From a virus, in the IMG/VR virus record IMGVR_UViG_3300035696_000005, positions 64,001 to 128,000 of that record: a stretch of DNA of 64,000 bases; one strand, written 5' to 3'. Position numbers and translations under genes: made by a program. This document shows positions 51,303 through 53,432 of the stretch, piece after piece. Numbering within the stretch: the stretch's first letter is position 1; each line of letters begins with the position of its first letter. The notes under the pieces were generated by a model, which searched no databases, was not told where the DNA came from, and saw nothing but the letters and a program-made list of their open reading frames with translations.

Positions 51303-51684
51303 GGCAAACCTCTTTGGTTTCCTCTGCAATCAATTGCGTGTAGTGGTTCAAGAGCTCATGGATCTTCTTCTCACTGGGCTTATTGCAGCAATGAGGGTTG
51401 TCCTCACATTTGCCGTACACTGGCTTACACGGAACTCTCTTCTCAATTTGCTCACGAGTCCTACCACGAATCAGACAGTACACGATGTGCCTATGGCGAA
51501 AATCAAAACGGAGCTTAGCAAGCTCAGCTTCAATCGCTCCAAGCTCTTTATTGTGCCAGCTGGTATCGCCGCCCGCCTTAGTAGTAACGCTGACCGCTTG
51601 TCTAAAGATGGGCTTCTTTTGTTTGATCAGATCTGCGGTGAGCTTGAGCTCGTTTTTGAGTTTGAGTAACGTCATCGATTTCAT
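51274..51684 (-). CDS. Hypothetical protein
   Basis: AAGGAG RBS before MKSMTLL; RHRHIVYCLIRGRT.EQIE motif. Confidence 0.7.
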   Translation of the reverse strand: MKSMTLLKLKNELKLTADLIKQKKPIFRQAVSVTTKAGGDTSWHNKELGAIEAELAKLRFDFRHRHIVYCLIRGRTREQIEKRVPCKPVYGKCEDNPHCCNKPSEKKIHELLNHYTQLIAEETKEVCHETVCASAG

Positions 51685-52021
51685 TTTTGTTCTCCTTAGC
51701 CCGAAAAGTAATAATCGCCTCTGAGACCTGCCGGGTGTCATAGTCACAAAGGAGTTCAGCAATTTCTTGATTGAGTGGAACACGAAGTATCCGGTTTTTC
51801 CGGACAGTTGAAAGAGCGTAAAAACCAGTGCTGCTCTTTTCGCCTTGAGAAAGATTTCGCCCAAGCGAAATATCCACCGGCCTGATCTCATAAGAGGGAT
51901 CAAGCTTCGTTAGAATATGCTGGGCAAGGGAGCGACTAAAAGTGATTCGAAAGATGAGCGACCCTTTGCAGATCGCGTATCCTGAGTTTCCAGAACAACC
52001 TAAACAAACCTAATGTTCCAT
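51602..52021 (-). CDS. Hypothetical protein interrupted by in-frame TAG at codon 4 (52010-52012); readthrough-dependent gene or pseudogene
   Basis: AAGGAG RBS and TTGACA upstream of ATG GAA CAT TAG; then open to TAG at 51602; internal two-fold repeat. Confidence 0.55.
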
Positions 52022-52562
52022 AAGCTATTTATCTCCTTCATAAAAATATTTGTCAATCGCGCCTCTTATTTAGCTCTGCAACGAGACGTAAGTTTCACCA
52101 GTCTTAGTTTGTTAGTATTTCGATAACAAACTAATACCTGCAAAACCAGTTTGTTTTTCTTGCGTCAAATCCATGCTGCGGCGCGACTGTGGGAATGTGT
52201 GGTCCTATAGCGAAGAAGGTCCGATAGACAATGAAAATTACGGACGAGGGTTCTTATAATAAAAAATGTTTGTAGAGTCAGCGTTATTGCTTAGGGTTGC
52301 ACATTATGCACATTGCGCATAAGGTCAGTTGTAAGCGCCTGTTTTTATTTCTTTTCCTTAGAGCACCGAATGTGTAGAAAAATGTGTAAAAAACGTCAAT
52401 GTGTGGCTACCCCACGCCGCGTTATAAAGCAAATCAATCGATTAAGCTATATTTTGGTTAACAATCAACTAAAGTGCTTTTGACACACTTCTCAGACCCG
52501 CTGTGTTGAATTACACATTGAGGGTATTTCGCGCACACGCCTACACAGTACTAAAATGGTTT
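52022..52562. promoter_or_regulatory. Largest non-coding region: AATGTGY repeats, inverted repeat, promoters (origin or regulatory hub candidate)
   Basis: Seven AATGTGY/RCACATT copies; 11-bp IR 52104-52134; TTGACA at 52051-52056; TTGACG-N17-TACACA at 52371-52399. Confidence 0.5.
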
Positions 52563-52828: not shown

Positions 52829-53173
52829 TTACTTGATCGGGATCAATCGGGGTCCGGCTATCTTCTGCTTCTTGAATCTGAGTTCCAAAACTCCATCTTC
52901 TAGGTGAGCGTCAATGGAGAGAGGATCTGCGCCCAAAGGGATGTCGAATATCCGCTTCAGTTCTTGGTCTCCCCTTTTTCCAGAAACAGTGATGTTTTCC
53001 CCGTTCACTTCAACTTTCAGATTCTCCTTTTTAATGCCTGGAACTTCGATTTGAAAACTGTAGCCGTCGCCTGTGTCATTATGTGGAACTATTGGAGCAA
53101 AAGGACTTCCCGGTCCAAAGAACTTTTCAGTAGCCTTCCAAAAGTCATCGAAAAAATCGTTATTATGGGACAT
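52829..53173 (-). CDS. Small heat-shock protein (Hsp20/alpha-crystallin)
   Basis: EVPGIKKENLKVEV, ITVSG, F.IP, A.LEDGVLELRF; start MSHNNDF after GAGGAGG. Confidence 0.85.
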   Translation of the reverse strand: MSHNNDFFDDFWKATEKFFGPGSPFAPIVPHNDTGDGYSFQIEVPGIKKENLKVEVNGENITVSGKRGDQELKRIFDIPLGADPLSIDAHLEDGVLELRFKKQKIAGPRLIPIK

Positions 53174-53204
53174 GGTAGCTTCCTCCTCTTGGTAATTTGA
53201 GTTT

Positions 53205-53432
53205 TCATTCATCGTTGTCAAGCATCGCCTTTTGGTCACGGATACGCAGCACCGGAGCAAACCCATATTTATGTGGTTTGCAGTGTGCGCATCCGCAACC
53301 ATAGTGATCTTTTTTAAGATGTCCAATGTGCTGGGATTTGTTGATTGTCTTCCAACAAGTGGCGCGAAGATCTCTCAATCTTCGCGCCTGCACTCGTTTG
53401 GTTTGTTCTCTTCTCCAGGCTCGATTACGCAT
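53205..53432 (-). CDS. Small basic Cys/His protein
   Basis: MRNRAWRR...CGCAHCKPHK. Confidence 0.65.
   Translation of the reverse strand: MRNRAWRREQTKRVQARRLRDLRATCWKTINKSQHIGHLKKDHYGCGCAHCKPHKYGFAPVLRIRDQKAMLDNDE

Follow-up and report, generated by a model that had tools for sequence, protein, structure and literature searches.

How can a phage gene whose fourth codon is an amber stop be made into a protein, in a genome that otherwise ends genes with the same codon? This question is raised by an open reading frame (ORF) at positions 52021-51602 of the window analysed here, a stretch of 64,000 nucleotides (nt) comprising bases 64001-128000 of the 182,359-bp virus record IMGVR_UViG_3300035696_000005, which CheckV rates as complete. 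All positions are window coordinates, and both the gated ORF and the gene of an amber suppressor tRNA with the anticodon CUA, tRNA(CUA), lie on the minus strand. Our analysis indicates that the ORF is probably a real gene, that its full-length protein would require the phage tRNA(CUA) to read the UAG at codon 4, and that this module recurs in unrelated phages; this reading is given a probability of roughly 0.85. Its core, translation from an ATG placed before the UAG and decoding of the UAG by the phage's own tRNA, had been proposed in an earlier note on this DNA, and it is supported by the conservation of the gate, by selection downstream of it, by the lack of any other start and by covariation with suppressor tRNAs. 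The finding is real, and the phenomenon extends well beyond this one locus.

The sequence elements on which the earlier note was built are all present in the window. The Shine-Dalgarno motif AAGGAG (52038-52033) lies 11 nt before the ATG start codon (52021-52019), which is followed by GAA, CAT and the gating amber codon UAG (52012-52010), so that the leader reads AAGGAG-N11-ATG GAA CAT TAG GTT TGT TTA GGT TGT. Beyond the gate, 135 codons are open up to a second TAG at 51604-51602, which is the gene's own terminator. The first in-frame ATG, GTG or TTG past the gate is the GTG at 51877, 44 codons on. Upstream of the ATG, the frame contains a TAG two codons before it, a TAA further up and no other start, which leaves the ATG at 52021-52019 as the sole in-frame start from these stops to codon 49. 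The only apparent entry to the frame after the TAG is the ATG three codons before it. The gene of the tRNA(CUA) (50995-50918) was found by ARAGORN and scored 51.6 bits with Rfam RF00005 (cut-off 29). It begins 607 nt past the end of the ORF and about 1 kb past the gate, on the same strand, and only weak terminator-like hairpins, all within coding sequence, lie between the two, in line with the note's statement that no evident terminator separates them.

With regard to the encoded protein, an exhaustive phmmer search returned more than 100 relatives (127 cluster representatives at E<1e-3, 25 at E<1e-10). The focal protein alone matched phrog_29342 with E=1e-3 only, and 18 of the 32 aligned relatives match that family, at up to 9e-11; judged by these matches, the focal protein is a member of the widespread small phage family phrog_29342. 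The family gene is present as a single copy in the focal genome. Members are 100-120 amino acids (aa) long and exhibit a short variable leader, a Cys-x(2-6)-Cys motif, and RxTFSxSLA, GLYAI, LR and SR motifs. In the focal gene, the Cys motif that precedes RxTFS is found directly after the TAG (VCLGC...RITFS). As uninterrupted members begin with M, 2-12 residues and the same Cys motif, the N-terminal segment is regarded as part of the protein. The conserved core of the focal protein covers codons 5-106 (52009-51704), with the N-terminal C-x2-C/Cys motif, RxTFSxSLA, GxYA, LRV and SR-type motifs. It is followed by an unconstrained C-terminal tail (51703-51602), which overlaps the next gene in another frame; homologues stop near residue 106.

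The earlier note had proposed that homologues be compared for a conserved TAG, and this comparison was found to be informative. Tblastn of cultured phages, and an unbiased search of metagenomes for which the internal motif HR[LI]TFSK was the sole key, gave the same picture of gating as the database entries of the family. Clustering of the family loci at 70% identity yielded 30 clusters. An in-frame TAG was found in 17 clusters, at codons 2-11 in 16 of them and mid-gene in one. A same-strand tRNA(CUA) is located within 2.2 kb, mostly within 600 nt, in 10 of the 17 TAG clusters, while five more have too little flanking DNA to judge its presence. The paired clusters include Klebsiella phages KP13-26 and KP2025 (ATG TCA TAG ACT AAT TGT, in a gene left unannotated in GenBank), Acinetobacter phage AB1I1M-1 (ATG AAA CAT TAG ATC TGT), Pseudomonas phage Astolliot (ATG AAA GAA TAG), Synechococcus phage BUCT-ZZ01 (TAG at codon 7) and six metagenomic lineages. 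Two further loci carry TGA as the gate: L015 (ATG TGA GTA TGT) has a tRNA(UCA) 92 nt downstream, and L013, gated at codon 5, has a tRNA(UCA) about 3 kb downstream. No tRNA was found near the uninterrupted members L089/L091 and L024.

The CUA tRNAs of different phages vary in their acceptor stems and discriminator bases and therefore do not represent a single conserved gene that travels with the protein; for this reason, the match between stop type and anticodon represents covariation. This covariation is the strongest evidence that the tRNA probably decodes the gate. The gene and tRNA module recurs in many unrelated large phages, usually within tRNA clusters. Immediately after the gating TAG, 13 of the 17 clusters have A, three have G and one has C (purine in 16/17), compared with T14, G9, A8 and C6 after the ordinary TAG terminators of the focal genome. 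A purine 3' of UAG (+4) favours amber suppression.

Among the alternatives, a minigene or upstream ORF survives best, although we consider it unlikely. According to this model, ATG-GAA-CAT-TAG is a separate ORF of three codons, the family protein is made by re-initiation at a non-canonical codon, and the proximity of the tRNA is incidental. In 8 of the 17 TAG clusters, the gate is followed by a near-cognate start codon (ATT, ATC or ATA), two complete genomes have no recognised CUA tRNA, and a peptidyl-tRNA hydrolase (PTH)-like neighbour would suit peptidyl-tRNA drop-off of the minigene type. Lambda bar minigenes are stand-alone ORFs of two codons, from which short peptidyl-tRNAs are released and for which Pth activity matters. 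The focal module shares with them a very short ORF that ends in a stop and a PTH2-like gene; unlike bar, its mini-ORF is in frame and continuous with a conserved protein. The codons that follow the gate are start-unlike in the focal phage (GTT TGT) and likewise in the related contig L002 (GTT TGC), the next codon in the Klebsiella group is ACT, and L068 has its TAG mid-gene. Moreover, re-initiation leaves unexplained the matching of TAG with CUA and of TGA with UCA, as well as the same-strand adjacency in 12 lineages. These observations speak against the minigene model.

Decoding of the gate by the suppressor tRNA presupposes that the stretch immediately after the TAG is translated. An 86-aa database protein (P0004), 63% identical, had matched the C-terminal part of the focal protein, and it is encoded on contig L002, which comes from a different sample. 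L002 aligns with the window from the Shine-Dalgarno motif on, and the DNA upstream of this point is unalignable. Its leader reads AAGGAGATAACTAGTCT ATG AAT CAT TAG GTT TGC CTT GGA TGT; the Shine-Dalgarno motif and its spacing (AAGGAGATAA), the ATG, the TAG at codon 4, the G that follows it and the subsequent Val-Cys-Leu-Gly-Cys are thus the same in both (ATG-NNN-CAT-TAG-GTT-TG). Synonymous sites are saturated between the two (proportion of synonymous differences, pS, 0.62-0.75), with multi-step changes such as Leu TTA->CTT and Arg CGC->AGG. For the ratio of nonsynonymous to synonymous change (dN/dS), codons 5-24, which immediately follow the TAG, give 0.13 and codons 49-106 give 0.16; the ratio is about 1.0 in the last 33 codons, where the overlap with the next gene imposes a low dS. 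Given saturated synonymous sites and a dN/dS of 0.13, the stretch after the TAG is under purifying selection as protein. It is this comparison with L002, and not codon usage, that is decisive for regarding the stretch as coding.

The earlier note had held the stretch to be coding on the grounds that it resembled the downstream half of the protein. The conclusion stands, whereas the resemblance of the two halves is undetectable by BLASTP. In the AlphaFold2 model of the focal protein (predicted local distance difference test, pLDDT, 89), two beta-beta-alpha-beta units are predicted, so that such a unit appears to be repeated despite the missing BLASTP match. A Foldseek search against the PDB gave no interpretable structural relative (best E 0.5), and neither did a wide VIA-align search (best Z 3.6 for 4dim_A, with a root-mean-square deviation of 2.6 over 47 aligned residues); the missing fold match does not prove a new fold.

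If the true start were the GTG at 51877 or a later codon, the intervening stretch would be a conserved non-coding or RNA element, or the decaying remnant of a longer gene. Gene callers do give such truncated products for many family members, and codon usage scores as neutral (-0.1) over the 44 codons. The low dN/dS of codons 5-24, together with the saturated synonymous change, speaks against this possibility, as does the fact that the family's Cys motif and RxTFS strand, both encoded there, form an integral part of a confidently predicted fold. We therefore regard a downstream start as very improbable. That the TAG reflects a pseudogene, a private nonsense mutation or an error of assembly is hardly credible; nothing beyond the presence of the stop codon itself speaks for it, and the TAG is kept at the same place in the independent assembly L002, equivalent gates occur in cultured, independently sequenced phages, and the sequence downstream of the TAG is under purifying selection.

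A reassigned code, with TAG as an amino acid codon for a block of genes as in genetic code 15, receives next to no credence either, even though the phage encodes a suppressor tRNA, as recoded phages do (bioRxiv 10.1101/2021.08.26.457843). In the focal genome, TAG ends 37 of the 226 high-scoring ORFs (16%), which shows that UAG is used as a stop, as the earlier note had assumed. In-frame stops that join two long coding-like frames comprise one TAG, 13 TAA and six TGA, so TAG is not enriched among them. The scan of the genome that the note had also proposed found no other case of a ribosome-binding site and ATG followed by a nearby TAG and a long ORF that withstood inspection. As TAG is a normal terminator, in-frame TAGs are not enriched and a single gene is gated, this is not recoding of the code-15 type: the phage-encoded tRNA(CUA) is present, and the many genes with in-frame TAG and the disuse of TAG as terminator are both absent. 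As a candidate nonsense suppressor, the tRNA has a cloverleaf above the Rfam threshold and an anticodon complementary to a stop codon.

The label 'tRNA-Pyl' assigned by ARAGORN was rejected because it reflects the anticodon only. Pyrrolysine tRNAs have a 6-bp anticodon stem, a 3-nt variable loop, a small D loop without GG and one base between the acceptor and D stems. The focal tRNA shares the 6-bp anticodon stem with them and otherwise departs from these features, with a D loop AAUUGGUA, a variable loop of 5 nt, two bases after the acceptor stem and a canonical T loop (TTCGAGT). No PylS was found in the 182-kb genome (TIGR02367, no match). Since PylS is absent and the tRNA is canonical save for its 6-bp anticodon stem, we conclude that this is not a pyrrolysine system. 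The tRNA is of class I, with the discriminator G73 and an encoded CCA. It is the only stop-reading one among the 19 tRNAs of the genome, 18 of which are found in a cluster 12-28 kb away.

Besides the neutral codon-usage score, several observations weigh against suppression of the gate by this tRNA. Back-up stops are not enriched after the 37 TAG terminators, through which a suppressor should read. The gene's own terminator is also TAG, so suppressor reading of it is expected to add 8 residues to the protein. The anticodon arm of the tRNA is atypical at 19 nt, with a 6-bp stem (GCCUUU/AAAGGC) and the loop CUCUAAA, in comparison with the usual 17-nt arm of the CUA tRNAs of other phages. No close paralogue of the suppressor exists among the co-resident tRNAs (best identities about 0.6-0.7), and hence no amino acid can be assigned to it. 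The two complete genomes already mentioned are that of Alishewanella phage Slickus01, which has a TAG at codon 6 and no recognised tRNA(CUA), and that of the 381-kb phage G002, which has a TAG-gated member and no tRNA(CUA). In Slickus01, a D-armless tRNA-like element (L011:2296-2365) is located 30 nt upstream of the TAG-gated family gene; besides its acceptor stem and T arm, it carries CCA and has an 8-nt loop, CCCCUAAC, containing CUA.

If the gate is decoded by the phage tRNA, translation would start at the ATG preceded by the Shine-Dalgarno motif, and the ribosome would meet the UAG after three codons. Full-length protein would result only when the tRNA(CUA), presumably charged and active on UAG in vivo, out-competes release factor 1 (RF1) at the gate, and only a tripeptide would be released without it. 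Because the competition between charged tRNA(CUA) and RF1 would set the yield, protein output would track suppressor activity. The gated gene and the tRNA may be co-transcribed. The gate is placed ahead of the first conserved Cys, in a leader that is not conserved, so that it is probably irrelevant which amino acid is inserted and only decoding would matter. The protein could be coupled to suppressor-tRNA activity as a feedback or feed-forward component that may, for instance, limit, buffer or exploit suppression, and the PTH2-like neighbour may recycle short peptidyl-tRNAs, as expected at an early stop. The earlier note had described the gate as a switch in time, and we infer at most that timing might be its purpose.

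Stop-codon recoding is known from phages with suppressor tRNAs, and a role in the regulation of expression has been suggested for it (Borges et al., bioRxiv 10.1101/2021.08.26.457843; Peters et al., PMC9523058). In these phages, as would be the case here, a phage tRNA(CUA) decodes in-frame UAG in phage genes. They differ in that recoding affects dozens of late or lytic genes and TAG has ceased to serve as a terminator, whereas the focal phage exhibits the standard code and one gene with a single start-proximal gate beside the tRNA. The gene of release factor 2, prfB, is autoregulated by a programmed +1 frameshift (PMC12421855). In both prfB and the focal gene, an early in-frame stop would make synthesis read out the translation component that acts there; prfB senses the release factor and escapes by P-site slippage, whereas the focal gene would escape by means of a dedicated suppressor tRNA. 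The pyrrolysine and selenocysteine systems likewise employ a dedicated tRNA, with a linked gene, to read an in-frame stop in particular genes. In contrast to them, the focal phage has no PylS, and its gate is placed in a non-conserved leader and implies no special amino acid.

A suppressor tRNA (tRNA-Sup) has also been reported in the standard-code Klebsiella phage phiKp24, and the role of such tRNAs was described as lacking explanation (PMC8386662). Reports of this type share with the focal locus a suppressor tRNA in a standard-code phage; they name no target gene, whereas the focal locus points to one. The suppressor tRNAs of standard-code phages would thereby gain a specific, conserved target gene, previously mis-annotated or unannotated, with a gate that matches the tRNA. 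This target can be tested in cultured phages of Klebsiella, Acinetobacter, Pseudomonas, Synechococcus and Myxococcus. The arrangement would constitute a compact natural circuit in which the synthesis of a protein reads out suppressor-tRNA activity, with prfB-like logic realised through a tRNA. Full-text literature searches returned no description of this gene family or module.

The family also exposes systematic annotation errors, as gene callers either truncate its genes or rescue them by alternative codes. More than half of the database representatives begin inside the conserved domain, and in every 'truncated' entry whose DNA was examined, the Cys motif extends upstream in frame to a stop, with a good Shine-Dalgarno-ATG a few codons before. 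The entries P0021 (L092) and P0006 (L088) derive from gene calls with TAG=Q or TGA=W, and their near-N-terminal Q or W represent recoded stops. Since some 'full-length' entries were called in this way, the true share of gated members is higher. The insertion of Gln at the gate, which homologues beginning with MTQQ... or MNYQVC... had seemed to indicate, was withdrawn as an artefact of the same calls. L088 contains several in-frame TGA and may stem from a genuinely TGA-recoded genome.

A further group of loci appears to be gated by frame rather than by a stop in frame. In L003, L006, L010 (Myxococcus phage Mx1), L017-L020 and L023, the ATG with its Shine-Dalgarno motif opens an ORF of 4-6 codons that ends in a stop, and the family frame lies at +1. 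The leaders of Mx1 (OR576727; L010:2473-2500; ATG ACC AAG CAT TGC...) and of L023 (approximately 2893-2910; ATG CAT TGC...) contain CAT-T. The tRNAs beside these two genes (L010:2904-2978 in Mx1; 2647-2722 and 2822-2892 in L023) are three otherwise unrelated molecules that share the anticodon loop GUAAUGA, in which AAUG complements CAUU. No stop-reading tRNA was found among the 35 tRNAs of Mx1. CCA-T is present in the L006 leader (414-435), and the tRNA that overlaps the end of this gene (721-794) has a loop (G)UAUGGA(C), of 6 or 8 nt, complementary to CCAU. These three loci suggest quadruplet or out-of-frame decoding by dedicated phage tRNAs, and possible natural +1 or quadruplet-decoding tRNAs would be relevant to recoding biology and genetic-code engineering. 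It is conceivable, albeit somewhat doubtful at present, that the family acts as a general 'sensor' for the non-standard decoding tRNAs of large phages (UAG/CUA, UGA/UCA, and +1 at CAUU or CCAU) and feeds back on recoding.

Two other leaders of the +1 class, L003:2880-2930 and L017:770-800, end in a common motif, CGA CCN stop CGC (CGA CCT TGA CGC and CGA CCG TAA CGC, respectively), and no tRNA was found within these short contigs. L017 also contains a perfect TTGACA-N17-TATAAT, placed for a messenger RNA (mRNA) leaderless at the ATG. In the focal window, the TTGACA hexamer listed in the earlier note (52056-52051) is present and is a candidate promoter element only: it has no good -10 box, a promoter scan gave no call, and it is conserved in part in L002 (TTGAAG). 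TTGACA together with GATAAA was considered as a leaderless promoter and left unsupported.

Two genes are located between the gate and the focal tRNA. The next gene (51684-51274, minus strand) encodes 136 aa, has its own AAGGAG-ATG and is syntenic in L002, with 79% identity by tblastn. It is followed by a small PTH2-like protein (peptidyl-tRNA hydrolase type 2-like; 51302-51006, minus strand), which matches Pfam PF01981 with E=3.4e-4, below the curated cut-off, phrog_1866 with 5e-9 and phrog_3668, 'hydrolase'. A PTH-like gene also directly adjoins the family member of L013 and that of Myxococcus phage Mx1. Neither the gated protein nor the next gene received a functional name from Pfam, NCBIfam or PHROG. 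Blastn with the locus gave no match among INPHARED phages, nor did the focal protein in an initial pattern-based search of IMG/VR, and a scan of genome contigs gave no relative. Upstream of the gated gene, 540 nt (52022-52562 of the window) lack a credible ORF; the counterpart of 400 nt in L002 is unalignable, although synteny is retained for the flanking HSP20-like gene (52829-53326) and for an 82-aa gene.

Several individual loci of the family show unusual arrangements. The gene of L068 (1410-1730) starts normally (M S C S D G S C), and its in-frame TAG is placed mid-gene in a variable linker. In L021, the genes flanking the TAG-gated gene are two different tRNA(CUA) and a tRNA to which ARAGORN gives an anticodon of four bases (gcaa, 8-nt loop), at 1689-1767, 1772-1846 and 2258-2333. 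In L015, a tRNA-like gene with an insertion of about 90 nt and an anticodon loop with CTA is found on the minus strand at about 10-172, directly upstream of the TGA-gated gene. Of the suppressor tRNA(CUA) genes of AB1I1M-1 (L009:2326-2397) and Astolliot (L087:2629-2704), one is absent from its public record and the other is labelled tRNA-Leu in its own. Finally, in Klebsiella phage KP13-26 (L007:2745-2775), and at the same place in L008, L014 and L029-L037, the 5' end of the tRNA(CUA) encodes the last five codons of the gene and its TAG terminator. Given this overlap between the 3' end of the gene and the tRNA, maturation of the tRNA by RNase P would remove the stop codon of the mRNA in this group.

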